From: a bacterium
GTDB lineage: Bacteria; Bacillota_I; Bacilli_A; RF39; UBA660
Reading direction: 5' to 3'
Length of the DNA stretch: 64,000 nt
NCBI GenBank assembly: GCA_029218465.1
Contig: JAQXRJ010000098.1
Span: 255-64,254, forward strand
Part shown: positions 5,602 to 51,400 of the stretch, piece by piece
How positions within the stretch are numbered: the stretch's first letter is position 1
Layout of the letters: every line of letters starts with the position of its first letter
Program-made: the position numbers and the translations under genes
The notes under the pieces: generated by a model
Seen by the model: only the letters and a program-made list of their open reading frames with translations
What the model was told of the DNA's origin: nothing
The model's database searches: none

Positions 5602-6765
5602 CTATTTTTTTGAATATATAGTTTGAATATTACTATCATATTTCCTTACAATACTCATGTATTTATCAAAATAACTATCATAATTATTTAAAATTTTATT
5701 ATTAAGATTATTGTATGGATATACTTTAAAATGACCACAAACAGATGCTTTACAGGTATACACTAAATCAGCTTTTGGTTCTTCTACTTTAATATAAACT
5801 TTATCATCAATAGTAGTTTTAACAATGTTAGTATCTACAATTAAACCAGTTAATTTTTCAACACCTATTTGAGATGAAATAAAATTGCCAAGTGAATATA
5901 CAACTAAAGTATCATCAATGAATTCAATAGGTTCAACCACATGTGGATGAGTTCCAATAATAATATTTACTCCTAAACTAGATAAATACTTAGCAATTTC
6001 TTTTTGAGAATTTGATACATCATGAGAATATTCTATACCCCAATGCATAGATACGATAAGTAAATCAACTTTATCTCTAATTTTTTCTATATCTTTTTTT
6101 ACTGTTTCTTTATCATAAACATTTAAGTAAAATTCCTTACCTGTAGGACTTTTAAGCCCATTAGTTAAAGTAGTATAAGCAAGAAGTCCATACTTAATAC
6201 CATTTTTCTCTTGAACAACAATTTTTTCTCTTTGTTCTTCTGAAATATAAGAACCAGCTGCGATTACGTTTGTTTTATTATCCCAATAATTTCTAGAATT
6301 AATTATTGTTTTATAATTTGTTCCATATCCTCTATCTAAAGTGTGATTAGTAGCAAGACTAACTAAATTAAATCCCATATCAATAAATGCGTCACCTACT
6401 TCGTATGGAGAATTAAATTGTGGGTAATTAGATAATCCTAAAGAGCTACCTCCAAGTATTGTTTCTTGATTGTAAAACTTTAAATCATATGATGATAATA
6501 AACTTTTAATTTCACTAAACATTGGCTTAAAATCATATGTGTTACCTTTTTTCGCATCAGCATAAATACTACTATGTATTAATGCATCGCCAATCATTAC
6601 TAAAGATACTCTTGTCTCATTAACAGAAGGTCTAGGAATATCATAGTAATCTAATTTTTGATATGTTTTAGTTTTTTCTAAAAAATTACAAACTAATACT
6701 AAAAATATTATTAAAAAAATAAATAACCATATAAATCTTAATATATTTTTTAAGCATTTACTCAT
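5602..6765 (-). CDS. CapA/PGA_cap family metallophosphatase-like protein, membrane anchored
   Basis: N-terminal TM helix. Motifs MIGDALIH, ATNHTLDRG, SMHWGIEY and GTHPHV are typical of the CapA family. Confidence 0.75.
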   Translation of the reverse strand: MSKCLKNILRFIWLFIFLIIFLVLVCNFLEKTKTYQKLDYYDIPRPSVNETRVSLVMIGDALIHSSIYADAKKGNTYDFKPMFSEIKSLLSSYDLKFYNQETILGGSSLGLSNYPQFNSPYEVGDAFIDMGFNLVSLATNHTLDRGYGTNYKTIINSRNYWDNKTNVIAAGSYISEEQREKIVVQEKNGIKYGLLAYTTLTNGLKSPTGKEFYLNVYDKETVKKDIEKIRDKVDLLIVSMHWGIEYSHDVSNSQKEIAKYLSSLGVNIIIGTHPHVVEPIEFIDDTLVVYSLGNFISSQIGVEKLTGLIVDTNIVKTTIDDKVYIKVEEPKADLVYTCKASVCGHFKVYPYNNLNNKILNNYDSYFDKYMSIVRKYDSNIQTIYSKK

Positions 6766-6888
6766 ATAATCACCTTTTACTATATTTTAAGTATATAATA
6801 TAATTTAAGTTAAATGCAATAACTTATAATTGAAAAATATGGAGTAATATGTTACGATTTAAATATAAAATAAAGGAGATAATAATTA

Positions 6889-7527
6889 ATGAAAAAGCAA
6901 AAAGAGAAAAAAAATAATAAAAAGAAACTTATAATTGCAATACTTTTTGTTCTAATAGCTGGAGGAATTTTAATAATTAAAAATAAAATATTAGATAATA
7001 ATTCGAATATAACACAAATAAAAACGATAGATAATATTTCAGACTATGATTATACTTTGAGTAACAATTCTACAGCATATCAAAAAACACTCTTTAAAGA
7101 ATTAAAATTAATATTAAATAGCAAAGAAATTAATGACGAAGAATATGCAAAAAAAATAGCACAATTATTTACTGCAGATTTATTTACACTAAATACTAAA
7201 TTAACAAGTTCAGATATTGGTGGTACTCAATACGTATATAGAGATTTTCAAGATGATTATGTATCTATTGCACAAAGCAGTCTATATAGTTCTGTAAAAA
7301 GTAATATTTATGGAGATAGAAAACAAGAACTTCCTGAAGTTACAAAAGTAACTGTTGATGATACAACTAAAGAAACCTTTAAATATGGAAATAAAGTTTT
7401 TGAAGAAGCATACGCTATTACACTTCATATTAGCTATAAAAAAGAGCTAGGTTATCCTGAAAAATATAAAGTTACAATTATTAAAAATGAAAAAAATATG
7501 GAAATAGTAAAAGCTAGTGAAAATTAA
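6889..7527 (+). CDS. hypothetical signal-anchored protein
   Basis: 212-aa ORF with SD AAGGAG upstream, a Lys-rich N-terminus, one TM helix (LIIAILFVLIAGGILII) and no recognised motif. Confidence 0.5.
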   Translation: MKKQKEKKNNKKKLIIAILFVLIAGGILIIKNKILDNNSNITQIKTIDNISDYDYTLSNNSTAYQKTLFKELKLILNSKEINDEEYAKKIAQLFTADLFTLNTKLTSSDIGGTQYVYRDFQDDYVSIAQSSLYSSVKSNIYGDRKQELPEVTKVTVDDTTKETFKYGNKVFEEAYAITLHISYKKELGYPEKYKVTIIKNEKNMEIVKASEN

Positions 7528-7539
7528 TCACTAGCTTCT

Positions 7540-9705
7540 TTATTCAGTAGGTTGTTCTGATTCTATTGGTAATGATTCTTCTTCATTTTTACCATTACCA
7601 TATGTTATTTCAATTGTTTTGTTACCATTTATAATGTCAAATATCGTTATACCTGATATATTTTGGCTTATTATTTTATCCTTTTCTCCGGATACAGCAA
7701 CATATTCAACAGGAATACTTAAGTTAGTTTTATTTAGCCAAGTTTTAAACGAGGACAAATTACTTCCTACATAGTTTTTAATATTACATTGACTTAAATC
7801 TTTAGTATCTATAACTAAACACATTTCATAGGTAAATTCTTGCTTTGTACCTTCCTCTGTTTTTTGACTACTTGAACCAGTATTATCAACTTTAGTAACT
7901 ACAGTAACGACTACAGTTTTTATATTCGATATATCAGTATTAGCTTTAACAGATTGTTCAAGTATTTCTCCTTCAAAATATTTGGAATCAGCAACATATT
8001 TATATTCAGGCTTAATAGTGATTCTATTAATAGAAGCCCAACTATTTGCATAATCAAAACTCTTACCAACAAAATTAGGTAATGTTACTATATCATCGGA
8101 ACCACCATATATATTGTTTCCAACAATTTTTTCTTCATATCCTTCATTTATATCAAAAGAGAATGTCTTAATAGGAGTCTCTTCTACAAGTTCTAAATTA
8201 ACTTTCATAGATTTAACAACAGCTTTAATACTATTATCGGTATTAATTACTGTACTTAAATTTAAATTACCAATTTTAATTGTCTTAGTATAACTTGTGA
8301 ACTTTAATTTTTGAATATTAACTATTTGAGAAATATCTCTATTTCCAGCATTAATCTTAATAAGTATATCTTTTCCAACATTGTATAAAGATAATATTGT
8401 ATCAGTAGACATATTAGTAACCATATTGTCCCCCAACATATCTAGCATTTTATATATAGTATCAATACTATTAATAGATTTCATTTTATTAAGTATTGAT
8501 TTAAATACTAATTGTTGATTTTGTCCTCTTACAAAATCATTTCTTATACCAGTTGAAGTATACTTTTTATCACACTTTCCAGTCCAATAATGTCTATTTC
8601 TTGTCAAAGCAAGCGCTTGTTCTCCATTTAAAGTTTGTTTTCCAGAATCTAAATAAACAGTGTTTTTACCCCATTTTCTTTCACTATTTTGTTCGCAAAA
8701 AGCATATGGTACATCAACATCAATTCCTCCTAATAAGTCAACAAGCTCAACAAGGCCTTTAAAATTCACCTTAGCATAGTAATCTATATCGATATCAAGA
8801 TATTTCTCTATTGTACTAACAACACATTTATCACCACTCCATCCAGAAGAATTTATTTTGTGTTTTTTACCTGTACAAGCAATCGTTGTATAAGTGTCCC
8901 TTGGAATACTAAGTATAGTTGAACTAAGCGTATTAGGATTAAAAGTAACTACCATAAGTGTATCAGCATTATATGAAGAGGATAAATTATCCACTCCCAT
9001 AAATAAAATAGTAAATGGTTCCATTACACTTTTTTGAATAGTCTGTTCTTGTGCAAATTTCAATTCATATGTTTTTATAATACCTATCTTTTCAGTAACA
9101 TCAGAATACTCTTCATCAGCTGCTAAAACAGGACCAAATTCAGTGGGCAAAAAGGCAAATCTTATCTTTTCATTATATAAATCCTCTACAATAGCATTGT
9201 AACTATCATAATATGTAAGTTCATTAGAAATACCATTTTCTTTTAAGAATCCTTCAATCATTTTTGATGAATTTGATGAAACTTCATCGGATGGAGCACC
9301 AATTTTTTCATCTAATGAAATATCACTTATAGTAATATTATTTGACTTCAATGCAACCAAACTTATAGAATCAACTTGAATATTATCTGATATTTTATCA
9401 AGAAGGCCAAGCATTCTATTAGCATTATATCCAATAAAAATATTAAAGAAAACAGTTAAAAAACTAAATAACAAAAAAATAACTCTTCTTAATAACTGTT
9501 TTTTTGCAACACTCTTTATATTAAAAAAGCATATTATTATAGTTATTATTGCATAAACTATACAAAAAATATATCTAACTAAATTTTCTATTCCATTAAG
9601 CTTTAAAATCGAATATAACAAATATCCTGAACTAAATAATAATAATAAATTCATAAATAAAGCAACAATCAATTTATAATTAAATTTTTTCTTTTTTACG
9701 GTCAT
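7540..9705 (-). CDS. LCP (LytR-CpsA-Psr) family cell-wall polymer transferase with polytopic N-terminus and long C-terminal extension
   Basis: LCP core reads FMGVDN...ADTLMVVTFNP...ILSIPRDTY...KINSS...RNR. There are several N-terminal TM helices. Confidence 0.8.
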   Translation of the reverse strand: MTVKKKKFNYKLIVALFMNLLLLFSSGYLLYSILKLNGIENLVRYIFCIVYAIITIIICFFNIKSVAKKQLLRRVIFLLFSFLTVFFNIFIGYNANRMLGLLDKISDNIQVDSISLVALKSNNITISDISLDEKIGAPSDEVSSNSSKMIEGFLKENGISNELTYYDSYNAIVEDLYNEKIRFAFLPTEFGPVLAADEEYSDVTEKIGIIKTYELKFAQEQTIQKSVMEPFTILFMGVDNLSSSYNADTLMVVTFNPNTLSSTILSIPRDTYTTIACTGKKHKINSSGWSGDKCVVSTIEKYLDIDIDYYAKVNFKGLVELVDLLGGIDVDVPYAFCEQNSERKWGKNTVYLDSGKQTLNGEQALALTRNRHYWTGKCDKKYTSTGIRNDFVRGQNQQLVFKSILNKMKSINSIDTIYKMLDMLGDNMVTNMSTDTILSLYNVGKDILIKINAGNRDISQIVNIQKLKFTSYTKTIKIGNLNLSTVINTDNSIKAVVKSMKVNLELVEETPIKTFSFDINEGYEEKIVGNNIYGGSDDIVTLPNFVGKSFDYANSWASINRITIKPEYKYVADSKYFEGEILEQSVKANTDISNIKTVVVTVVTKVDNTGSSSQKTEEGTKQEFTYEMCLVIDTKDLSQCNIKNYVGSNLSSFKTWLNKTNLSIPVEYVAVSGEKDKIISQNISGITIFDIINGNKTIEITYGNGKNEEESLPIESEQPTE

Positions 9706-40525: not shown

Positions 40526-41167
40526 CTACCTCTGCTTTTCTTTATGTAATGGTACTAAACATTTTCTAAATTGGTCTTCTAATAAGCTAGGATACATATA
40601 TCTAAGAACAGTCCCTAACTTTAAGTTATCCATTTCAGGAACTAATCTTTGATCATTAATAATTTTTGTATAATCTAGTTCAACATCAAAAGGATATTTT
40701 ATACATTTTAAAGAAACAACTTCCCTAATAAATTCCCTTATAGCTCTGCCATTACCTTCTCTAAAAGGATGTATTCTTATTAAATCATAATAAAAAGGGC
40801 CAAGAACATACGCAAGCATGTCAACACTAGTAACAAGATTTAGCTCTTTATCATATCTTGTCATAATTTCATCCAATTCTCTGTCTATGTTTTTAGGATC
40901 AGAAAAATTATACCTATTCTTAGATAAAGTACATGTCCTAATCTTTCCTGCAAATGAATAAATATCTCCAAATATAAATTCATGTATACTAAGTAAACTG
41001 GCTTTATCACAAGCTGTAATAGAAGGGATTAAGCCTAATATAGTAAGCTTTTCTAAAACAATTTTATCTTCCTGTTTTTTTAATTCATCTTGATTAACTA
41101 TTCCTAATTTATTTTTCAAAATATTTGTTCCTTCAATTAAATAATCTTCCCAAGTATCAGTCATCAT
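40526..41167 (-). CDS. fic: Fic family protein (canonical AMPylation motif)
   Basis: HPFREGNGRAIREF matches HxFx(D/E)GNGRxxR. N-terminus has GTNILKNKLGI. The stop lies 4 nt from the pcrA start. Confidence 0.85.
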   Translation of the reverse strand: MMTDTWEDYLIEGTNILKNKLGIVNQDELKKQEDKIVLEKLTILGLIPSITACDKASLLSIHEFIFGDIYSFAGKIRTCTLSKNRYNFSDPKNIDRELDEIMTRYDKELNLVTSVDMLAYVLGPFYYDLIRIHPFREGNGRAIREFIREVVSLKCIKYPFDVELDYTKIINDQRLVPEMDNLKLGTVLRYMYPSLLEDQFRKCLVPLHKEKQR

Positions 41168-41330
41168 TTACCTCTTTCTTTAAAATTTTCTGTCTAATAC
41201 ATTCTTTTGTATTATTAAATGACTTATCATTATAGTTAATTGTACAATCGTTTTCTAAACACATATTTGCTAAAGCCATTAATAATGCTTTATGTATCAT
41301 ATTTTCACTAAATTTTTTAACTACTTCCAT
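41157..41330 (-). CDS. 57-aa ORF translationally coupled to fic (candidate Fic antitoxin / inhibitory helix protein)
   Basis: Not in track (<60 aa). Sequence: MEVVKKFSENMIHKALLMALANMCLENDCTINYNDKSFNNTKECIRQKILKKEVNDD. SD GAGGT lies 6 nt upstream. The stop overlaps the fic start by 11 nt. ALANMCLEN resembles the (S/T)xxxE(G/N) inhibitory motif. Confidence 0.5.
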   Translation of the reverse strand: MEVVKKFSENMIHKALLMALANMCLENDCTINYNDKSFNNTKECIRQKILKKEVNDD

Positions 41331-42169: not shown

Positions 42170-42622
42170 ATGAAAAGAAAAATAATTACTAATATAGCTA
42201 TCATAGGATTATTCATAATTATATGTTCTGTAATATTTAATTTTAATAGAAATAATATCAAGAATTTAAAAACAGTTAAGGTTGCTGAAGTTGCCCACAG
42301 TATTTTCTATGCACCACAATATGCAGCAGTAAGTGAAGGCTTTTTTGAGGAAGAAGGATTAAATGTAGAAATAACTTTAACACCAGGAGCTGATAAAGTA
42401 ATCGCTGCCGTACTATCAGGAGATGTTGATATTGGCTTTTCAGGAAGCGAAGCAACAATATATGTTTACAACGGAGGAGAAAAAGACTATTTAAAAACGT
42501 TTGCACAATTAACTCAAAAAGATGGTAGTTTTTTAGTATCAAGAGAAAAAATAGATAATTTTACACTTAAAGATTTAAAGGGAAAAACCATAATTGGTGG
42601 AAGAGCAGGGTATCTCAATTAA
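42170..42622 (+). pseudogene. ABC transporter substrate-binding protein (NMT1/NitT-TauT type), 5' fragment interrupted by element insertion
   Basis: Signal anchor plus the SBP fold sequence. The reading ...LKGKTIIGGRAG is followed by the element-derived residues YLN and a stop. Confidence 0.8.
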
Positions 42623-42635
42623 AGTGAGAACACAC
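42600..42635. other. attL junction
   Basis: The host reading frame ends at GCAGGG (42605-42610). The element end ATCTCAATTAAAGTGAGAAC (42612-42631) is an imperfect inverted copy of the other end. Confidence 0.65.
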
Positions 42636-42680
42636 CCTTGAAAAATAAGGAATTTCCCCGTCCTCACTTTTGATGAGCCC

Positions 42681-44309
42681 CTAGTTGCCGTCTATGACAT
42701 TGCCATTTTTGGCTATTTTTTTTACACTAATTTCATTTAGTAAATCCTGTGGATTTTTAATGTTATACTTAATTGTTATTTCTTTGTTTTGGTTGATGAT
42801 AATTTTATCAATTATATATGATAAAAGTCTTTTGTTGGGTTTTCTCATTTTTAAATACTCTTTGATGATTTCTTGGTATTCATCATTTGGTGTAATCTTG
42901 TTTTCTAGAATACCTAATTGCTTCTCTAGTTCATTTAGTATCTCATCTTGCTTTATTATCTCATTTACTATTTGATTACTAAAATCTCTATATTCTTCAA
43001 GAGTAATTACTTCATCAGCCTTATCAAAATAGATTTGTTTTTTTCTATTACTCAATTTTTCTTTTTCTAACTTACAAGCATTTATTTGACCCAACAAATT
43101 TTCTCTTAACTTATTTCTTTTAGATGAGTTCTTAAGTATTGTTTCAAAGTTAGTACTCTTAACATACTTTCTACACATATCTCTAACTTCTTTAAGCACC
43201 ATTTCTTCTAATAAAAAATAATTCATAGTGTGTGGAGTACATACTTTAAACTTACTATACTTTTGATAATAAGAACAATTTATATAAGCCCTACCGTCTT
43301 TCTTAGTTGCTATAGATATTGCATGACCGCACTCTTCACAAAACATAAACCCTTTAAGTAAATAATTTTTTGTATTGCTCTGTTGATTTTTATTTTTCTT
43401 ATAACTTTTTTGAACTACATCAAACATCTCTTTATCTATAATAGGTTCGTGTGTATTTTCTACTATAATCCAACTTTCTTTTGGTGTCCTAATCTCTTTT
43501 TTAATCTTATAGTTTATTCTTTTTCTTCTTCCTTGTGTCATATTACCTATATAAGTTTCATTGTTTAACATTTCATCAATAGTCCTAGAATTCCATAAAC
43601 CATAAGCACTAGATTTTCTACCACGATTTAAATCTGCATATACACTTGGAATAGGAACCCCCTCTTTAGATAAAGTGTCTGCAATAACTTTGCATCCCAT
43701 ACCATCATAAGCCATTTTAAATATTCTCTTAACAACTTTAGCAGCCTCTTCATCTACAACCAATTTATATCTATTATTTTCATCAAGTTTATAGCCATAT
43801 ACTGCTTTCCACCCTAGAAACCAACCTTGTTCTTTTCTATTTCTTAAAGTTCTTTTTACTTTCTTAGATGTATCTTTTGCATATTGGTCGTTGAATACTG
43901 CTTTAAATGGGGCTATATCATTACTAACATTATCTAGATAAGTGTCTATGTCATCTAGTATAGCAATATATCTTACATTGTGTTCGGGAAAATATTTTTC
44001 CATATATTCTCCAGCCTTAATGTAATCTCTACCTAGTCTTGAATAGTCTTTAGTAATAACACAATTAACATTGCCACTTTCTATATCTTTTATAAGCCTA
44101 TTAAAATCAGGTCTATCAAATGTTGTTCCACTAACACCATCATCTACATACTCATCATATATTTTAAAATTTTCATCTTGTTTGTTGATATAATCTAGAA
44201 TAATATTTCTTTGATTAGAAATAATTTCACTTTCTTGTTTCTTTTTATCTTCATCTTCACGAGATAAACGAATATAGATACCAACATTATATATTTTACT
44301 ACCTTTCAT
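42681..44309 (-). CDS. large serine recombinase (integrase)
   Basis: Resolvase catalytic domain (VGIYIRLSREDED...NQ...DDGVSGTTFDRP), recombinase domain, Cys zinc ribbon (CEECGH...C...C) and a coiled-coil tail. Confidence 0.9.
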   Translation of the reverse strand: MKGSKIYNVGIYIRLSREDEDKKKQESEIISNQRNIILDYINKQDENFKIYDEYVDDGVSGTTFDRPDFNRLIKDIESGNVNCVITKDYSRLGRDYIKAGEYMEKYFPEHNVRYIAILDDIDTYLDNVSNDIAPFKAVFNDQYAKDTSKKVKRTLRNRKEQGWFLGWKAVYGYKLDENNRYKLVVDEEAAKVVKRIFKMAYDGMGCKVIADTLSKEGVPIPSVYADLNRGRKSSAYGLWNSRTIDEMLNNETYIGNMTQGRRKRINYKIKKEIRTPKESWIIVENTHEPIIDKEMFDVVQKSYKKNKNQQSNTKNYLLKGFMFCEECGHAISIATKKDGRAYINCSYYQKYSKFKVCTPHTMNYFLLEEMVLKEVRDMCRKYVKSTNFETILKNSSKRNKLRENLLGQINACKLEKEKLSNRKKQIYFDKADEVITLEEYRDFSNQIVNEIIKQDEILNELEKQLGILENKITPNDEYQEIIKEYLKMRKPNKRLLSYIIDKIIINQNKEITIKYNIKNPQDLLNEISVKKIAKNGNVIDGN

Positions 44310-44386
44310 ATTACCTCCTCCAAGGGTAAAATATATAATCTAATTACATATATATTATACCACTTTTTGCCTTATTTTTAAAGGGT

Positions 44387-44494
44387 TCAGACCAAATCCA
44401 ACTCATAAAATTCATAATAAAAATCTACTAAAAATTGTTCTATTATTTCTTGCAAACTTCTGCCTTCTTCATTAAACTCACTTTTTATAATCAT
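44387..44494 (-). CDS. 35-aa ORF upstream of the recombinase gene
   Basis: Hand translation MIIKSEFNEEGRSLQEIIEQFLVDFYYEFYELDLV, with SD GGTGGA 5 nt upstream. Function unknown. Confidence 0.3.
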   Translation of the reverse strand: MIIKSEFNEEGRSLQEIIEQFLVDFYYEFYELDLV

Positions 44495-44794
44495 AAATTC
44501 CACCTATTAAACCCTATGCTAGAAGTAATTCTTTTATAAGTCCTTTCTATTTCCGCTTAAGCAACTATAGAATACCAAGAACAAAAAAGAAATTCTTGTT
44601 TAAAAAACATATAAAAAAATGCAAAAATGAACATAATAAAACCCTTATAGATAAAGGGCTAGAGAAATTTTGATAACCGATTTTTCAAGCAAAAAAGCAA
44701 TTTTTAAGGGTATTTTAATTCGCAAAAAACTTTGTTAAGATGAAATCACAAAGGCAAGGAACCAACCTTTGAAAAACTGAAAGGAGGAACAAAA

Positions 44795-45022
44795 ATGATA
44801 GTTGATGATTATAAAATTAAGTTAGAAGTTATTAAACTTGCTATTATGAAACACACAGGAAGAGAAATCAATGAAGAATTATTAAATAGATTTTGTAAAT
44901 ATCTAACAATGGAATATGAAAACAACACATCTAAAAATAGTATTGATAATAGAATAAACAGTATTTGTAAAACTATTAACACTAAATACGATAAATACAT
45001 AAGAATTATCAATGCTAACTAA
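44795..45022 (+). CDS. hypothetical 75-aa protein (element)
   Basis: Strong SD AAAGGAGG 7 nt upstream. No recognisable motif. Confidence 0.5.
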   Translation: MIVDDYKIKLEVIKLAIMKHTGREINEELLNRFCKYLTMEYENNTSKNSIDNRINSICKTINTKYDKYIRIINAN

Positions 45023-45120
45023 TTTAAGTTGAATTAGTTTAATTTTATCAAGTTTAAACAAGATTAAACCCCTAAATAACTTGTTTAAACTAAATCTCAC
45101 ATTTCTTTATAATTTAGTTT

Positions 45121-45148
45121 AAAGTGATAGTAAAATATCACTTTTTTT
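45121..45148 (+). terminator. hairpin and T-run overlapping the next promoter
   Basis: 9-bp stem AAAGTGATA/TATCACTTT followed by TTTT, running into TGATATAAT. Confidence 0.5.
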
Positions 45149-45156
45149 GATATAAT
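45148..45156 (+). promoter_or_regulatory. extended -10 promoter element TGATATAAT
   Basis: TG-n-TATAAT lies 29 nt upstream of the ATG at 45185. Confidence 0.45.
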
Positions 45157-45184
45157 AACAACCAATTCTATTAAGGGGGATTTT

Positions 45185-46324
45185 ATGAGAAGACATAATC
45201 ATTTAACTGATGATATATTTAAAAATAGTAAGTATGTTGCATTTGTAGAGAAAACACACAACATAAAGAATTTCAGAAAAGAATATAGAGAACACTATGA
45301 TATGATTTTAGACATATATAAAACCTTTATTCTACTAAATAATTGTTTCTTTAGTGATAGTAATTTATCTAATGCTGACAAAGTAGAAAATGCTCTAAAG
45401 ATTATAGAAGATTTACTTTTTGTTGATTATGAAGAAAGTGAAAAACATAAATATAGAGTTCAAGACATAAGAGATATTTTAGATAAGAGATGTAGGCATA
45501 TTTATAATCTAATTGAAGAGTGGCATAATGATTTAGAAACCTTAACTAGTAAAGATATAAACAATTCAATTACTCTTAAGAATATGAAAAAAGATATAGA
45601 AAAAGAAATGGCTGACCTTGAGTTTGCTGAATTTGATAGCATAAATCTAGAAAACATTTCTTACCAAAAGAACACTATAAAGAATTATAGAAATTACACA
45701 AAACACTTTTCTAAGTTTGATAACATCTACATTAAAAGCAAAGAGTTTAAACAGGAGTTTAAAAACAAGTTTTATGAGAATAATGGTGTTAAATTAGATA
45801 ATAACGATTTAAATAAACTAGGCTTACTATTTAAACTACTCTCTTCACTAAATAATGGGTTAGTAAATATAATTACTGATTATAAACTTGATGAGGAAAT
45901 TACACAAGGAAAAAGCCCAGATGAACTATATAAGATATATCTAAAATCTTGCAATATAGATTATGAAAATGAAAACTTTATAGACAATTCTCAAAACTTT
46001 TTATGTTTTCTAGGCATTATTAAAAATAAAATTGATGAAGAATTACATTTTAATAACACAATTCTACTTGAAAGATTTGATTTATTCTTCTTCTATCTAA
46101 CAATGGAACAATGTTTTTACTCTCACAAGATAAAAGTAAAATCAGACTTTATAAACAAATTACAAAATGACTTAATAGATATATATAAGCAATTTAAAGA
46201 AATTAAAAAGAAAGAAAAAGAATTATCTCTAGAAGAACTTAAGGAACAATACTTTATTCCTATATATAAGAAAGCAAACGATATGATAAAAAGGTATGGT
46301 GATGTATATGAACGAATTAGTTAA
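45185..46324 (+). CDS. hypothetical 379-aa protein (element cargo), predicted all-helical, no known motif
   Basis: Long ORF with SD AAGGGGGA upstream. Its end overlaps the next ORF. Confidence 0.6.
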   Translation: MRRHNHLTDDIFKNSKYVAFVEKTHNIKNFRKEYREHYDMILDIYKTFILLNNCFFSDSNLSNADKVENALKIIEDLLFVDYEESEKHKYRVQDIRDILDKRCRHIYNLIEEWHNDLETLTSKDINNSITLKNMKKDIEKEMADLEFAEFDSINLENISYQKNTIKNYRNYTKHFSKFDNIYIKSKEFKQEFKNKFYENNGVKLDNNDLNKLGLLFKLLSSLNNGLVNIITDYKLDEEITQGKSPDELYKIYLKSCNIDYENENFIDNSQNFLCFLGIIKNKIDEELHFNNTILLERFDLFFFYLTMEQCFYSHKIKVKSDFINKLQNDLIDIYKQFKEIKKKEKELSLEELKEQYFIPIYKKANDMIKRYGDVYERIS

Positions 46325-47171
46325 TTTTAAGAAAATAGACATTATCAAAGAAATGATAAAAGAAAAAGAACAAAGTATTGAAAGTAAAATTGATTATGAT
46401 AATACAATTCTTGGCAATATTACAATGGATTATTTTTACGATTATATAGAGCCTATGTTATTAGAATTAAATGATAAAGAAATACTTGAATATGATAGAA
46501 ATAAAATAAGAGAAAGTTCTGAAACAAGAAGAAATTATCTAAAAGCATTTTCATTTTTAAGAGAAGTAATAAATCCCAAAGAAGAAGAAAAAAATGTTAG
46601 ATTTAAAAATGATACTCAAACTATTAAAAGCCATTTTAGTATATTTGGTCTAGATAAATATAGACAACTATGTGATGACAAAGGTATATTCTTTTTAGCC
46701 TCTAATGATACAAAACCTAAAAAAGAATTTGCTGAAAAAATAAAAGAACTTTTCATTTATGAATATAAGATAACAACCTATTCAGAAAATTACATAAAAC
46801 CTTTATTAGCCAACTTAAGTAATGGTAATAAATTAAAATACTTTGTTAATCCTAAAAACGAAGAAGAAAGATATATAAACTACTCTATTGAGGCTATAAT
46901 GATGTCTATTCTTAATGGATTATTCTATACAAAAACATCTCTAGGAGAATACGAAACAATATTAAGTCTTATTGATAATGGTAGTGATGATGACAAAAAG
47001 AAACTTGCTTGGATTATGTATTTTGATGTGTTCTCAACACAATTTACTGATGAAGATTTGAAAAGAGTTTATGAAGAGGCTTTAACTTACGGACATAATA
47101 AAAATAAATACGGACAATACGATTACAACAACTACAACAAAGTTATTACAACAATTTTTGATATAAAATAA
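46308..47171 (+). CDS. hypothetical ~287-aa protein (element cargo)
   Basis: ORF overlaps the previous gene by 17 nt when started at ATG 46308 (SD GGTGA upstream); the track starts it at 46296. No known motif. Confidence 0.6.
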   Translation: MNELVNFKKIDIIKEMIKEKEQSIESKIDYDNTILGNITMDYFYDYIEPMLLELNDKEILEYDRNKIRESSETRRNYLKAFSFLREVINPKEEEKNVRFKNDTQTIKSHFSIFGLDKYRQLCDDKGIFFLASNDTKPKKEFAEKIKELFIYEYKITTYSENYIKPLLANLSNGNKLKYFVNPKNEEERYINYSIEAIMMSILNGLFYTKTSLGEYETILSLIDNGSDDDKKKLAWIMYFDVFSTQFTDEDLKRVYEEALTYGHNKNKYGQYDYNNYNKVITTIFDIK

Positions 47172-47180
47172 AATTATCAA

Positions 47181-47226
47181 CTAAACAAAAAGGAATAGAA
47201 ATCTCTAATTCTATTCCTTATTTTTC
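47181..47226. terminator. bidirectional terminator between convergent cargo genes
   Basis: 11-bp stem AAGGAATAGAA/TTCTATTCCTT (47190-47200 / 47209-47219), flanked by A-rich sequence upstream and T-rich sequence downstream on the plus strand (a U-tract follows the hairpin on either strand). Confidence 0.75.
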
Positions 47227-48002
47227 AATGCTTCTTCCATTGCTTTTTTTTCTTCTTCTCTTTGCACTAAATAATCCATTTCTTTAACTAAAACATTATT
47301 CTTTTTTAAGTTTTCTAATATGTTAAATTTAAAAATTTCTTGAATTCCGACACCATAATAATCTAAAGATTTCCATTCATTGTTTCCAATATATTGATAA
47401 CATTTAACACCAACAATTATCAATTCCTTTACTCTCTCATCATACAAAACTTGTTTAATATCTTTATAATTTACTGAATATTTAAACATTGCAACACCAT
47501 CTAGATAATTTACTCTTTTATCATAAAACAAGTAATCAAATCCATTTTCATTAACTACTATTTTTTCTTTTTTCCTATAATAAAACTCTCCAAATGCTGT
47601 CATATTAACACTAAATTTATATGCTGAGTATGGCAAAATATCAAATGCTAAACCAAAGATAAATATCAAAGAACTTATAACAGTTCTATCAAAACTATCT
47701 TCTATTAAAACTACACAAGCAATTGTAGTAATAATTACTGCTAATAGTAATAATATAGATGTTATATAGAAAGTATATACCCATTTGTGTTTTTGAGGCA
47801 TTGTTTTTTTATAATCACTAGAATAAATTTTAAATAGTTTTTTTCTTTTTGATTTATCTACCTCATATACAACCTCTTTGTTGATATCGTTAAATATTTG
47901 TTTCTCCTGTTTATTCATTTGTGAATTTTGTGAAATTTCATTTGCAGCCATATCTACTGCAACACCAGTTTCAATTACTTTGCTAATTTTATTCATTTGC
48001 AC
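47211..48002 (-). CDS. hypothetical membrane protein: cytoplasmic N-terminus, two TM helices, ~130-aa C-terminal domain
   Basis: TM helices WVYTFYITSILLLLAVIITTIACVVLI and VISSLIFIFGLAFDILPY. The architecture is reminiscent of bacterial PH (YdbS/T-like) proteins. Confidence 0.55.
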   Translation of the reverse strand: MQMNKISKVIETGVAVDMAANEISQNSQMNKQEKQIFNDINKEVVYEVDKSKRKKLFKIYSSDYKKTMPQKHKWVYTFYITSILLLLAVIITTIACVVLIEDSFDRTVISSLIFIFGLAFDILPYSAYKFSVNMTAFGEFYYRKKEKIVVNENGFDYLFYDKRVNYLDGVAMFKYSVNYKDIKQVLYDERVKELIIVGVKCYQYIGNNEWKSLDYYGVGIQEIFKFNILENLKKNNVLVKEMDYLVQREEEKKAMEEALKNKE

Positions 48003-48182
48003 TCCTCCTACTATTTAAGTATAACACACTTTTTTCTTTTTTGACATAATATCATACGAATTTATGTAAAAATTACTTTTGTAAAAAAAATATACTACGT
48101 CTGTTAAACTTAAAAACTTAACACAAGGTTATAAAATAAAATATAATTGAATTGTAAAATCTAAAAGAGATTTTGCAAGGAG

Positions 48183-48974
48183 GTGTTAAACATCTACAAA
48201 CTTTATCAAAACAAGTATTTCAACAACTTACTACTCAATATGGTTAAAGTAAAGTATATTGTAGGCAACACTATTGATACCGAAGATTTTTACTTATGCC
48301 TAAACAATGCTAATAGACAATATGACAATAGTTCTATTACATTTAAGGTTATGCTATATCTAGTTAGTCTTTTAACTGATAATGGGATTAATGATAACAC
48401 TTGTATCATCTCTACTGATGACATACAAAGAAAGTTAAGCATAAGCAATATTAACTCGTTTAAAGGCTCACTTGATTACATATCATCACTAACTTTTAAT
48501 TACAAGTTAGACAAAATTAACAAGTGGCAATATGTAGATAATATATTTGTATCATATACTCAATTTAAAGGCTATTTTAAGGTTGTATTTAGTGATGAGT
48601 TCATTACTCTACTTGATAGGTCTAAACAATTCTATCAAGTGCCTAAAAGCCTTTTAAATAGCGATATTAGGTATTACAGAAATAGTATTTTTATGGCTAA
48701 CTATATTTTGCTACACCAAAGGCGAAACATGAGGCAAGATAAGAAAAAATATAGACATACCATATCAGTTGCTAAACTACTTGATAATAGCCCATTTATA
48801 CCAAAATATGAGGAACTAGACACAAGACAAAGACAAGTATCTAAATGTATTATCAAGCCTTTTGAAAGCAACCTAAACTTTGCTTGTAGCCTACTAGGTA
48901 AAGTATGGCACTATATTGATGATGAGCCAACAAACTATATTGAGTTTGTAAAAGCCAAAATCTATGTTAGTTAG
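48183..48974 (+). CDS. putative replication initiator protein
   Basis: No strong motif. The call rests on context: its 3' end runs directly into a 21-bp-phased iteron array, and a DnaB-like helicase gene follows. The start is uncertain (GTG 48183 or ATG 48240). Confidence 0.4.
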   Translation: MLNIYKLYQNKYFNNLLLNMVKVKYIVGNTIDTEDFYLCLNNANRQYDNSSITFKVMLYLVSLLTDNGINDNTCIISTDDIQRKLSISNINSFKGSLDYISSLTFNYKLDKINKWQYVDNIFVSYTQFKGYFKVVFSDEFITLLDRSKQFYQVPKSLLNSDIRYYRNSIFMANYILLHQRRNMRQDKKKYRHTISVAKLLDNSPFIPKYEELDTRQRQVSKCIIKPFESNLNFACSLLGKVWHYIDDEPTNYIEFVKAKIYVS

Positions 48975-49029
48975 TAGGTTTAGCCTATTAGATAGTAGAT
49001 ATTCTACTTTAGATAGTAGGTGCTACTCT
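48967..49029 (+). repeat. three direct iterons TTAG(T/A)TAGTAG spaced exactly 21 bp
   Basis: Copies start at 48967, 48988 and 49009. The core reads TTAGTTAGTAGG, TTAGATAGTAGA and TTAGATAGTAGG. Confidence 0.8.
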
Positions 49030-49036
49030 TACAAAG

Positions 49037-49052
49037 CCTTTATATATAAAGG
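49037..49052. repeat. perfect 16-bp AT-rich palindrome CCTTTATATATAAAGG (candidate unwinding element)
   Basis: Read directly from the sequence. It lies immediately after the iterons. Confidence 0.7.
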
Positions 49053-49222
49053 TTTAAGAGGGGTCTATTATCTAATTATACTAATAATACTAATAGAGCT
49101 CACCAACTCTTTGAGGAGTGGTGGTCTATCTAATGAAAATGAGGAGTTTTAGGAGTAAAGATTTAACAAAACTATGCAAGAGTATATTATATTAACTACT
49201 ATACTCTAGGAGGACAAAACAA

Positions 49223-50092
49223 ATGAATACAGAGTTAAAGAATACTACTGATACATTACAAGATTATTTGTCATACATACAAGATGACACACAAGTTAAA
49301 AAGATAAGAACAGGCTTTGATAAGTTAGATAACTTGCTTAATGGTGGTTTGCCTAATGGCTTGATAACTTTAGGTGCTATACCAAGTTTAGGCAAAACTA
49401 CTTTTGCTTTGCAAGTTGCAGATAATATGGCAAGTATGGAAAATACAAAAGTTTTGCTATTCTCTTTGGAAATGACTAGATTTGATATTATCTCAAAGAG
49501 TTTAAGCCGAATAAGTTATTTAACTGATGAATTAAGCAACTATACCTTTGATGATTTACTATCAAATAATGAGATAGTAGATTATGAGGCTCTACTAACT
49601 AAATACGAGCCAATAGCGAACAACTTATACACAATAGACTATATCTATGATATACGAGATATTGAGGCTTTTATAAGACAATTTAAGGACTTGCACGAGA
49701 ACGAGAATATTGTTGTAATTATAGACTACTTACAATATATCTTGTGTGGGAACAACGGCAACGATAAGCAAGTTATAGACATAATAACTAAACGATTAAA
49801 AGAGTTAGCCAAAGAGCTTAATATTTGTATCATAGAAATTAGTAGCCTTAATAGAACCAATTATAGTGGTAGTATTACAATGGAAAGTTTTAAAGAAAGC
49901 GGAAGCATTGAATACACTAGCGATATTCTTATGGGTTTAGAATATGTTAATAATGGTGCCAATGAACGAGAATACGAGGCAAAAAGAAACCCAAGAAAGA
50001 TAACTTTAAGTGTTATTAAAAATAGATATGGGGCATTAGGAAAAATCAATTTTGATTTCTATACAACATATCATACATTTATTGAAAAATAA
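49223..50092 (+). CDS. DnaB C-terminal-domain-like (RecA-fold) helicase/ATPase
   Basis: GLITLGAIPSLGKTTFALQVADNMA (Walker A), VLLFSLEMTRFDIISKSL, and VVIIDYLQ (Walker B). There is no DnaB N-terminal domain. Confidence 0.75.
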   Translation: MNTELKNTTDTLQDYLSYIQDDTQVKKIRTGFDKLDNLLNGGLPNGLITLGAIPSLGKTTFALQVADNMASMENTKVLLFSLEMTRFDIISKSLSRISYLTDELSNYTFDDLLSNNEIVDYEALLTKYEPIANNLYTIDYIYDIRDIEAFIRQFKDLHENENIVVIIDYLQYILCGNNGNDKQVIDIITKRLKELAKELNICIIEISSLNRTNYSGSITMESFKESGSIEYTSDILMGLEYVNNGANEREYEAKRNPRKITLSVIKNRYGALGKINFDFYTTYHTFIEK

Positions 50093-50115
50093 TAAAGTAG
50101 TTTTATGTAGGGGCA

Positions 50116-50496
50116 ATGGGTACTTATAGGAAAATCATAGGAAAAACCGATAAAACCCACCCCTACCTACTACGAGGAGAAAGAAGAGTGAAAAACAAAA
50201 AGATAAACATAGAATTAGATATAGAAGATTTACTAGGGCTTAAAGAGCCAAGTAAAGATAGTTTAGAATATGACCTAAACTTTATTGTAAATAATGGTAT
50301 GGATGAATACCTTAAACTAATAGAAGATGAAAAAAGAAGAGATAGAGAGTTTGTAGAATTGTTTAAACGAAACTATAATGATATAGTAAAAATTATTGAG
50401 TTTGACCCACATAAAAGAATTGCTGTTAATTGCTATACTTGTATCAAAGGTATGGATTTATCTAAACAATATGGAAAGCCAAAAAGAAAGGAATAA
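50116..50496 (+). CDS. hypothetical protein (element); start may be GTG near 50188
   Basis: ORF only. GAGGAG lies upstream of the internal GTG. Confidence 0.4.
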   Translation: MGTYRKIIGKTDKTHPYLLRGERRVKNKKINIELDIEDLLGLKEPSKDSLEYDLNFIVNNGMDEYLKLIEDEKRRDREFVELFKRNYNDIVKIIEFDPHKRIAVNCYTCIKGMDLSKQYGKPKRKE

Positions 50497-50520
50497 GTTT
50501 GTCGCTTATTCCTATTTTAT
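50490..50520. terminator. bidirectional terminator
   Basis: 8-bp stem GGAATAAG/CTTATTCC followed by TATTTTATT. Confidence 0.6.
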
Positions 50521-50768
50521 TATTTATTCATAAGTTCATTATATTGTTTGATTTGCTCTACATTATGTTTTTGAAATTCTTTCTTAAACTCTTCCATAAT
50601 TTCTAACTTATGATTTTCTAAAAGTTCTCTATGTCTTTTAGATAAGTTCTTAATCTCTTTCAACATTTGCCCCGTTATTAACATTTCTATCATCATATTA
50701 TTCATATCTTCTGTTAAATTAAATCTTAAATCTTCCATTTTCACTATAAATACCTCTTTCATATACAT
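50520..50768 (-). CDS. hypothetical 82-aa coiled-coil protein (element)
   Basis: ORF only. Confidence 0.4.
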   Translation of the reverse strand: MYMKEVFIVKMEDLRFNLTEDMNNMMIEMLITGQMLKEIKNLSKRHRELLENHKLEIMEEFKKEFQKHNVEQIKQYNELMNK

Positions 50769-50824
50769 ATTTTTGTAATTAGAAAAATATATTTTAACCC
50801 TTATAACTATTAACTTCGTTTAAT

Positions 50825-50860
50825 TTGTCATCACTCTTGTTGAGATGGGGGGGAATGCCT
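50825..50860. other. attR junction
   Basis: Element end GTCATCACTCTTGTTGAGAT (50827-50846), then a G7 run (50847-50853), then the host sequence AATGCCTGAAATG. Confidence 0.65.
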
Positions 50861-51400
50861 GAAATGACATTAGAATGGGTTTTAAAAGAAGCTAGCATTG
50901 ATCCGAAAAAAGATGTAAAAATAGATACAAGTATAGCATTTGCAGCAATGAGTGGTGCTTTTATTGGAGGAACTGGTGACTTTGTTTCGCTATTTGAACC
51001 AACTGCTCTTGAAATAGAAAAACAAGGATATGGTTATGTAGTTGCATCACTCGGAGAATTAGGTGGAATAGTACCATATACATCTTATAGTGCAAGAATA
51101 AGCTATATTAAAAATAACAAAGATACTATAGAAAAATTTACAAAAGCTATACAAAAAGGATTAGATTTTGTACAAAATAACCCAAGTGAAACTATTGCTA
51201 AATCTATATTAGAATTTTTCCCTGACACTTCATTATCTGATTTAACAAAAGTTATTGAAAGATATAAATATCAAAATACATGGCCAAAAACAACTGAATT
51301 CACAAAAGAATCATTTGAACACTTACAAAAAATAATGATTGAAGCTAATGAATTAGATGAAATCGTTTCATATGATGAGTTAATATACTCAGGAAAATAA
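50825..51400 (+). pseudogene. ABC transporter substrate-binding protein, 3' fragment
   Basis: From GGMPEMTLEWVLKEASIDPKKD onward the frame reads as the continuation of the 42170-42622 protein. There is no ATG or SD of its own. Confidence 0.8.

Follow-up and report, generated by a model that had tools for sequence, protein, structure and literature searches.

A conserved cassette of three orphan genes in small mosaic integrative elements of an undescribed family from uncultured gut Bacillota

The 64,000-nucleotide (nt) stretch of contig JAQXRJ010000098.1 from a metagenome-assembled genome (GenBank GCA_029218465.1), hereinafter the window, carries an integrated element of ~8.2 kb (42611..50853) whose family, as yet undescribed, consists of small mosaic integrative elements (~5–10 kb) from gut Bacillota that are uncultured. 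Beside its integrase gene lies a plus-strand set of three open reading frames (ORF1, ORF2 and ORF3; Table 1), which an initial annotation had labeled as cargo and as a candidate defense module. The cargo label does not hold, because homologous proteins fill this slot across the family while the integrase type and the replication genes change: ORF1–ORF3 are a position-fixed backbone of the element family. They constitute one co-inherited cassette, with recombination boundaries 44547–47171, that is swapped as a block and is, apart from an integrase, the most constant feature of the family.

A core cassette beside a variable slot

The unity of the cassette is apparent from the way its genes vary across loci: ORF2 identity co-varies with that of ORF3 (Spearman rho 0.76) and ORF1 (0.69), as against rho values of −0.23 to 0.24 with the integrases, the backbone genes c7 and c8, the putative replication initiator, the helicase and the repressor. 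Its edges are visible in locus L069, whose integrase is of the tyrosine type and whose right arm differs, and which is 94% identical to the window over 44547–45037 and 45143–47171 only, the nucleotide similarity ending exactly at the ORF3 stop (47171). Locus L073 holds the same element as the window and is 95% identical to it overall (synonymous divergence, dS, of ORF1 0.14); since its ORF2 (6468–7607) is nonetheless 100% identical at the nucleotide level to window positions 45185–46324, the ORF2–ORF3 unit has probably undergone a recent exchange or sweep.

Searches with ORF2 recovered 61 homologues (31–94% identity), all of ~380 amino acids (aa), unnamed and without Pfam domains, and HMMER, run exhaustively over 1.84 billion cluster representatives, returned only 85 family members, ~25 of them full length. 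The 29 loci retrieved via ORF2 share a common plan, namely an integrase gene, ORF1–ORF2–ORF3, a variable or repressor slot, replication genes and c4–c7–c8. In these relatives the integrase gene is on the minus strand and codes for a large serine recombinase or for a tyrosine integrase accompanied by an HTH_17 Xis-like gene; small ORFs, ORF2 and an ORF3 homologue follow on the plus strand, and then, back on the minus strand, an HTH_3 repressor resembling cI. The variable region sometimes includes a 263-aa protein and a DnaB_C helicase and is succeeded by HTH_17, c7 and c8. Throughout, the cassette is the neighbor of the integrase gene, with transcription leading away from the latter, and it persists across serine and tyrosine integrases and differing replication genes; ORF2 together with ORF3 or a replacement for it has this location in ~30 related elements.

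As retrieval via ORF2 makes the presence of ORF2 circular, the family was re-sampled independently by searching metagenome contigs with an alignment of c7, which gave 40 loci, eight of them with a complete left arm. ORF2 is present in five of these eight: L032 has the full-length version, and L033, L035, L049 and L065 have a 305–330-aa form followed by an unrelated 130–156-aa protein. The family that substitutes for ORF3 after such short forms (c23) is not detectably related to ORF3. Three further loci (L042, L055 and L061) code for c36, a protein of 289–347 aa and a possible distant relative of ORF2, its C-terminal half matching the C-terminal domain of ORF2 with an hhalign probability of 83%. 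An ORF1-like gene was called in seven of the eight loci (none in L033), and the ORF1 family is present in most elements, including some that lack ORF2. The minimal member, L049, has ~5 kb and contains nothing beyond a recombinase gene, ORF1, ORF2 in its short form, four small genes and the pair c7 and c8.

What varies instead is the minus-strand slot after ORF3. In most elements it holds an HTH_3 repressor, in the window a protein of 263 aa for which two membrane segments are predicted, in L069–L072 a 552-aa protein, in L028 five genes and in L065 three. The turnover expected of a defense hotspot is thus shown by the slot at 47211–48002 and not by that of ORF1–ORF3, and since its content differs between elements, the gene at 47211–48002 is the likeliest true cargo. 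Its product has no family or PDB match and occurs in identical form in the same element from other samples. In phage-inducible chromosomal islands (PICIs) and prophages, the interval from integrase to regulatory module is a common site of accessory genes (PMC10085698), so the positional reasoning behind the initial label was sound, yet in this family the genes at that position are conserved.

The reading frames were correctly called, including the overlap of the last two, and all have good ribosome-binding sites. ORF3 has three in-frame ATGs (46296, 46302 and 46308) and the stop codon of ORF2 is at 46322–24; hence the overlap measures 17, 23 or 29 nt. The NCBI annotation chooses the 287-aa version and the majority of gene callers the 289-aa version. 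In relatives the junction between ORF2 and the next gene is equally tight (−23 to +13 nt). The ratios of nonsynonymous to synonymous substitution (dN/dS) are 0.04–0.06 for ORF1, 0.08–0.12 for ORF2 and 0.22–0.33 for ORF3; all three are real genes under purifying selection, with ORF3 the fast-evolving one among them. ORF3 homologues span 24–100% identity and 126–456 aa, each lying directly 3′ of ORF2, and the gene after ORF2 aligns with ORF3 over its full length even at 24–29% identity.

Every ORF2 context examined belongs to this element family, save one probable remnant beside a tRNA gene, and in none of them does ORF2 lie in a defense island, a phage or a plasmid; the co-occurrence of ORF2 and ORF3 that was to be checked along with a defense-island setting does extend across many genomes. 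Neither ORF2 nor ORF3 has relatives among GenBank phages (tblastn) or PLSDB plasmids, and scans of IMG/VR with ORF2, ORF3 and c7 returned nothing. The exceptional context is a solo, intact, 372-aa ORF2 homologue without integrase, ORF1 or ORF3 (L020, 2891–4009; L021, 2668–3786), counted once because the two loci are 99.7% identical. It sits between genes for a D-Ala-D-Ala carboxypeptidase and a UDP-galactopyranose mutase, directly upstream of tRNA-Leu(gag). We considered domestication and rejected it, this being a single case that abuts a tRNA-Leu gene; it probably represents the remnant of an element at a tRNA site.

Orphan proteins and their regulatory DNA

The initial annotation had seen no recognizable domains in the three proteins, and a wide range of searches agrees with it. 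Single-sequence scans of ORF1–ORF3 against Pfam, PHROGs, PADLOC and NCBIfam gave nothing significant, nor did per-member scans of the ORF1 and ORF2 families against Pfam and of the ORF2 and ORF3 families against PHROGs. PADLOC-DB 2.0 yielded zero families at E-values up to 1 for ORF1, ORF2, ORF3 and the 263-aa membrane protein, and sequence-profile searches of the PDB found no match for the cassette proteins. No fused domains were found in the distant or longer ORF2 relatives, and hhalign detected no paralogy among ORF1, ORF2, ORF3 and the putative initiator. Homology of the cassette proteins to replication, partition, regulatory or morphogenesis proteins was likewise not found, so that neither this nor a failure of the gene pair to co-occur speaks against their novelty. 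One multi-domain match to ORF2, P0184, proved spurious, being a HAMP-repeat chemoreceptor.

AlphaFold2 models built from the family alignments bear out the suggestion that the proteins are all-helical. The ORF2 model (mean predicted local distance difference test, pLDDT, 85.3) is almost all helix and divides into two domains, with a disordered linker (residues 155–169) between them; that of ORF3 (pLDDT 70.4) is also almost all helix. Foldseek comparisons of the ORF2 model with the PDB and BFVD and of the ORF3 model with the PDB gave no match, the best having E >0.8 and a template-modeling (TM) score <0.2. The proteins are therefore true orphans by sequence and, as judged from the models of ORF2 and ORF3, by predicted fold. 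The family median isoelectric points (pI) are 8.9 for ORF1, 6.0 for ORF2 and 5.2 for ORF3. ORF2 and ORF3 have no membrane segments and no effector-like domain, in particular none of the nuclease, NTPase, protease, TIR or Sir2 type, and most of the invariant residues of ORF2 have aromatic or aliphatic side chains (chiefly Tyr, Trp, Phe and Leu), Arg, His and Cys not being among them.

For ORF1, seven matches of its 17-member family to models of the SAM-like core-binding domain of tyrosine recombinase integrases, all below threshold, give a weak yet recurring indication that it is a small helical protein that binds DNA. The possibility that ORF1 and ORF2 are a split tyrosine recombinase was rejected, as there are no catalytic R-K-H-R-H/W-Y residues, no Phage_integrase match and no integrase fold in Foldseek.

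The cassette comes with regulatory DNA of its own. The 485-bp gap between the integrase gene and ORF1 (44310–44794) retains 65–80% nucleotide identity where the flanking proteins share only 30–50%. It includes an extended −10-like motif, found in one copy per locus in 24 loci at 26–47 nt 5′ of the first cassette gene, and a leader stem-loop that is paired in 10/10 aligned sequences; its 11-nt loop is invariant, and two positions of the stem are compensated in the L017 lineage. On the minus strand one pair of the hairpin further upstream (44640–44660) is a G-U wobble, whereas on the plus strand that pair is an A-C mismatch; only the minus strand has T-runs after the hairpin. An ORF of 35–38 aa upstream of the recombinase (44387–44503, minus strand) was also called in L022, L028 and L073.

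The three genes had been described as a single operon. They do form one plus-strand set, but a hairpin with a T-run followed by a TGnTATAAT promoter motif precedes ORF2 in 11 of 14 diverse loci, and from this conserved terminator–promoter junction it follows that ORF1 and ORF2–ORF3 are probably separate transcription units, the latter insulated on both sides. The first unit would comprise the extended −10 promoter, the invariant leader hairpin and ORF1. In the second, beyond the terminator-like hairpin, the consensus extended −10 promoter would drive translationally coupled ORF2–ORF3, and the bidirectional terminator already recognized after the cassette, a stem-loop with T-runs on both strands, would close it. 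Terminator-like sites in the region number five, where 1.9 are expected.

The element and its insertion site

The element was inserted by a large serine recombinase into an NMT1-type gene. The recombinase has all three characteristic domains, and the target, an NMT1-family ABC substrate-binding gene, is split into a left piece (42170–42619) corresponding to Pfam profile positions 5–96 and a right piece (50825–51397) corresponding to 102–215. The same NMT1-type target is occupied by related elements in L017–L019, L073 and L077. The joined ends would read TCACTCTTGTTGAGAT-G(n)-TATCTCAATTAAAGTGA, a 13/16 imperfect inverted repeat of the kind expected at a serine integrase's attP; the predicted attP contains …TTGTTGAGAT-G(n)-TATCTCAATTAAAG…. 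The GC content of the element setting is ~26%. An Rfam scan of the whole element gave no match.

Table 1. Features of the element in the window, with positions numbered from the first letter of the window
Feature	Position	Strand	Remarks
attL	42608..42627		G-run then half-site TATCTCAATTAAAGTGA; read from sequence
Large serine recombinase, 542 aa	42681..44309	−	Resolvase 1e-18, Recombinase 5e-25, Zn_ribbon_recom 6e-12; phrog_95 integrase 2e-91
Upstream regulatory block of cassette	44547..44794	+	65–93% nucleotide identity across elements with flanking proteins 30–50% identical
Upstream hairpin	44640–44660		
Extended −10-like motif TGtTAAGAT	44733–44741	+	Family form TGnTA(A/T)GAT
Leader stem-loop CAAAGG-CAAGGAACCAA-CCTTTG, 23 nt	44749–44771	+	Invariant
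ORF1, 75 aa, basic, helical (predicted)	44795..45022	+	ATG 44795; GGAGG at 44783–87
12-bp perfect palindrome	45051–62 and 45080–91		ORF1–ORF2 spacer (45051..45156)
Hairpin and T-run	45121–45148		ORF1–ORF2 spacer
Predicted extended −10 promoter TGATATAAT, consensus	45148–45156		ORF1–ORF2 spacer
ORF2, 379 aa, acidic, soluble	45185..46324	+	ATG 45185; AAGGGGG ahead of start
ORF3, 289 aa from 46302 or 287 aa from 46308	46302/46308..47171	+	Start overlaps ORF2 end
Predicted bidirectional intrinsic terminator, 11-bp stem	47190..47219		T-runs on both strands; closes cassette and convergent gene
263-aa protein, two predicted membrane segments	47211..48002	−	Maximum 19-residue hydropathy 3.05
Putative initiator, basic 263-aa protein, pI 9.2	48183–48974	+	Initiator role inferred
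DnaB_C-only helicase	49223–50092	+	DnaB_C E = 3e-42; phrog_19 E = 1e-43
Backbone gene c7	50116/50188–50496	+	Conserved in most family members
Predicted right-arm terminator	50489–50513		
Backbone gene c8	50520–50768	−	Conserved in most family members
attR	50831..50853		Half-site TCACTCTTGTTGAGAT then seven-G run; read from sequence

The genes run in the order serine recombinase, ORF1–ORF3, 263-aa membrane protein, putative initiator, helicase, c7 and c8. The putative initiator and the helicase are linked in 6–10 loci and together make up a replication module (48183..50092). Most relatives carry both an HTH_3 repressor and an HTH_17 gene; both are absent from the window element, where tblastn found no remnant of either. 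The initiator gave one weak partial match in tblastn searches of phage and plasmid records. The helicase is ~36% identical to the helicase part of proteins from small Streptococcus and Staphylococcus plasmids (e.g., pSMQ-316) and ~30% identical to regions in two unannotated 4–5-kb 'Bacteriophage sp.' scaffolds from human feces (MT839351 and MT839512). None of these three records was retained as a relative, since the helicase is the sole gene that they have in common with the element.

Two further observations concern the surroundings of these elements. Just outside the window element, a 213-aa ORF on the minus strand (40526–41330) has the Fic motif HPFREGNGRAIR visible in its translation and overlaps a 57-aa upstream ORF, with which it may form a Fic toxin pair. 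Additional (second or third) large serine recombinase genes lie just past c8 or near it in L011, L014, L017, L031 and L049, which suggests tandem or neighboring elements at one hotspot.

Possible roles of the cassette and relation to known elements

We propose that ORF1, being small, basic and helical, would bind DNA and regulate the cassette, while ORF2 and ORF3, which are acidic, soluble, all-helical in their models and devoid of a catalytic signature, would form a complex acting through binding to other proteins. The cassette might thereby manage dealings with another mobile element, either exploiting a helper in the manner of satellite hijacking or excluding a helper or competitor. Such dealings appear the likeliest role because the cassette is both family-wide and confined to the family, ORF3 evolves fast, the unit is often exchanged and the elements have no recognizable transfer or packaging genes: no relaxase, coupling protein, capsid or terminase was recognized in the window element proteins or in the scanned unannotated proteins of L022 and L028. 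We give the whole of this explanation, from core cassette to helper or competitor role, about an even chance of being correct; its functional part taken by itself, a DNA-binding regulator plus an acidic non-enzymatic complex acting on a helper or competing element, is a tentative proposal that falls somewhat short of that.

Helical satellite proteins that hijack or interfere with a helper by binding helper proteins are represented by P4 sid-delta-psu and, in the Staphylococcus aureus pathogenicity islands (SaPIs), by cpmAB and ppi. Like these, the cassette proteins are small to mid-sized, mostly helical, presumably non-enzymatic and restricted to one element family. On the other side, no similarity to them in sequence or fold was found (Foldseek against the PDB), the ORF2 model is a compact two-domain structure and not an extended scaffold, and the regulation of the cassette looks independent of the right-arm operon. 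A bolder version would make ORF1–ORF3 the hallmark of a new helper-dependent family, of phage satellites or similar hitchers, in which ORF2 and ORF3 capture or block helper machinery by a mechanism unlike those of PICIs, P4, PICI-like elements (PLEs) and PICMIs, the minimalist chromosomal islands inducible by phages; this we regard as rather unlikely.

Of the five core components of PICIs, namely an integrase, a regulator (an alpA, merR or stl homologue), a primase-replicase, capsid morphogenesis genes and a small terminase (PMC10085698), the window element has outright only the first, in the form of its serine recombinase (tyrosine integrases in relatives). A regulator (HTH_3/HTH_17) is present in most relatives only. 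Instead of a primase-replicase there are the basic 263-aa protein and the DnaB_C-only helicase, with no primase, D5_N or PriCT domain. No element protein matches a head, scaffold or morphogenesis family in PHROGs or Pfam, the fold searches with ORF2 and ORF3 being negative as well, and there is no small terminase homologue among the element proteins; no terminase was matched at a meaningful E-value, the best being phrog_5573 with ORF1 (E 0.056). With three of the components lacking and the regulator confined to relatives, the element is not a PICI. It does resemble PICIs and SaPIs in being a small integrative element with a terminal integrase, mosaic modules and extra genes between integrase and regulator, and, in most family members, a cI/Stl-like repressor divergent from a rightward operon of replication genes. 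It differs in that the genes between integrase and regulator are conserved in this family and accessory in PICIs, that the family has no relatives in viral collections and that no helper is known.

The PICMIs of Vibrionaceae, as they are described in PMC10803314, are comparable as tiny islands of reduced gene content with mostly unknown proteins and no capsid-remodeling genes (cf. L049 at ~5 kb), a likeness of description; their hosts are marine Vibrionaceae, and this family comes without evidence of induction or packaging. Integrative and mobilizable elements (IMEs), for example IME_Rho_tet (PMC12904643), are comparable as elements of ~10 kb from gut Bacillota that use a serine recombinase, are often inserted inside genes and depend on a helper for their transfer. 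IME_Rho_tet was rejected as a member of the same family, since its genes include a canonical relaxase and MobC, all point in one orientation and follow a different layout. The window element proteins include no relaxase, MobC, Rep_trans or FtsK/TcpA domain, and ORF2 has no plasmid homologue. Overall, the element resembles the minimalist satellites and the "hitcher" elements with unknown transfer mechanisms, to the extent that these are characterized in PMC10803314 and PMC11389934.

Several points weigh against a role in dealings with a helper or competitor. The case is one by elimination: no helper phage was identified, and neither the ORF2 nor the ORF3 model matches a known satellite scaffold or interference protein in the PDB. 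The absence of ORF2, ORF3 and c7 relatives from IMG/VR and of any in GenBank phage records leaves no evidence that the elements are packaged. The link of ORF1 to SAM-like domains lies below threshold, and the promoter, terminator and DNA-binding assignments are all predictions. The promoters look constitutive and the terminators insulate the unit, so expression from the integrated state would be expected, which suits exclusion or defense better than induced hijacking. Finally, L077 (reverse complement), the same element at the same site and 97% identical to the window, has TAG in place of TAC at ORF2 codon 160, within the predicted inter-domain linker. This may be true decay or a sequencing error, and a near-identical element with a premature stop would indicate that ORF2 is dispensable for chromosomal persistence.

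Among the genes located between int and cI in prophages are morons and superinfection-exclusion genes; morons vary among related phages, and many known exclusion proteins are membrane proteins. The cassette shares with them the site beside the integrase gene and the make-up of an insulated unit with its own promoter and terminators, plausibly expressed when integrated; it departs from them in being conserved across the family and in having soluble ORF2 and ORF3 proteins. The leading alternative is that ORF2–ORF3, perhaps with ORF1, are a new moron-like system of anti-phage or anti-plasmid defense or abortive infection that benefits the host while integrated. The promoter-like motif of the pair with terminators on both sides, the location at the usual accessory-gene site of PICIs and prophages between integrase and regulatory module (PMC10085698), the faster evolution of ORF3, the frequent exchange of the cassette and the intact solo ORF2 at one chromosomal locus are all in keeping with it. 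We nevertheless consider it unlikely: PADLOC gave zero matches, none of the enzymatic domains listed above and no membrane effector is present, the slot is filled by homologous proteins family-wide with no turnover of unrelated systems, the ORF2 family does not extend beyond these elements to phages, plasmids or IMG/VR, and the solo copy, beside a tRNA-Leu gene, is probably a remnant.

That the cassette serves replication initiation, copy control or segregation of the excised circle is considerably less probable still. It is universal in the family and fixed in position, the basic ORF1 is preceded by a highly conserved non-coding block with hairpins, and L049, L022 and L028 lack a DnaB-type module or any other recognized replication gene, so that these elements, if they replicate at all, would need another module. 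Yet ORF2 and ORF3 are acidic, in contrast to the putative initiator found with the helicase, which is basic (pI 9.2); a search for iterons around the cassette was negative, no library or fold search returned an ATPase or winged-helix match, and there is no co-variation between cassette and replication genes. Nor is there any sign of circular episomes, the first 28 loci, ~8-kb contigs included, being without terminal overlap. Of equally low probability is a regulatory switch that senses a signal, for example helper infection or stress, and controls excision or derepression as an anti-repressor or recombinase directionality factor: the cassette adjoins and diverges from the integrase gene, in most relatives converges with a repressor of the cI-like kind, includes a leader hairpin that is invariant, codes for a small basic protein, and is retained in the window element without the usual repressor, but one cassette works with serine and tyrosine integrases whereas directionality factors are integrase-specific, the tyrosine-type elements already have an HTH_17 Xis-like gene, ~670 residues of helical protein are large for a switch, and there is no similarity to known anti-repressor families.

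Small integrative elements without recognizable transfer genes are abundant, and their movement and role are presented as a recognized open problem in the accounts of PMC11389934 and PMC10085698. For one family of them, the boundaries, the attachment site and the modular layout are now defined, the core is told apart from the cargo slot at 47211–48002, and a ~2.6-kb cassette of orphan proteins with its own regulatory DNA offers a concrete experimental target. Should the cassette be a defense system, it would lack an effector of any known type; should it mediate the exploitation or exclusion of a helper, the biology of satellites and mobile elements would gain a new mechanism and at least one new protein fold.

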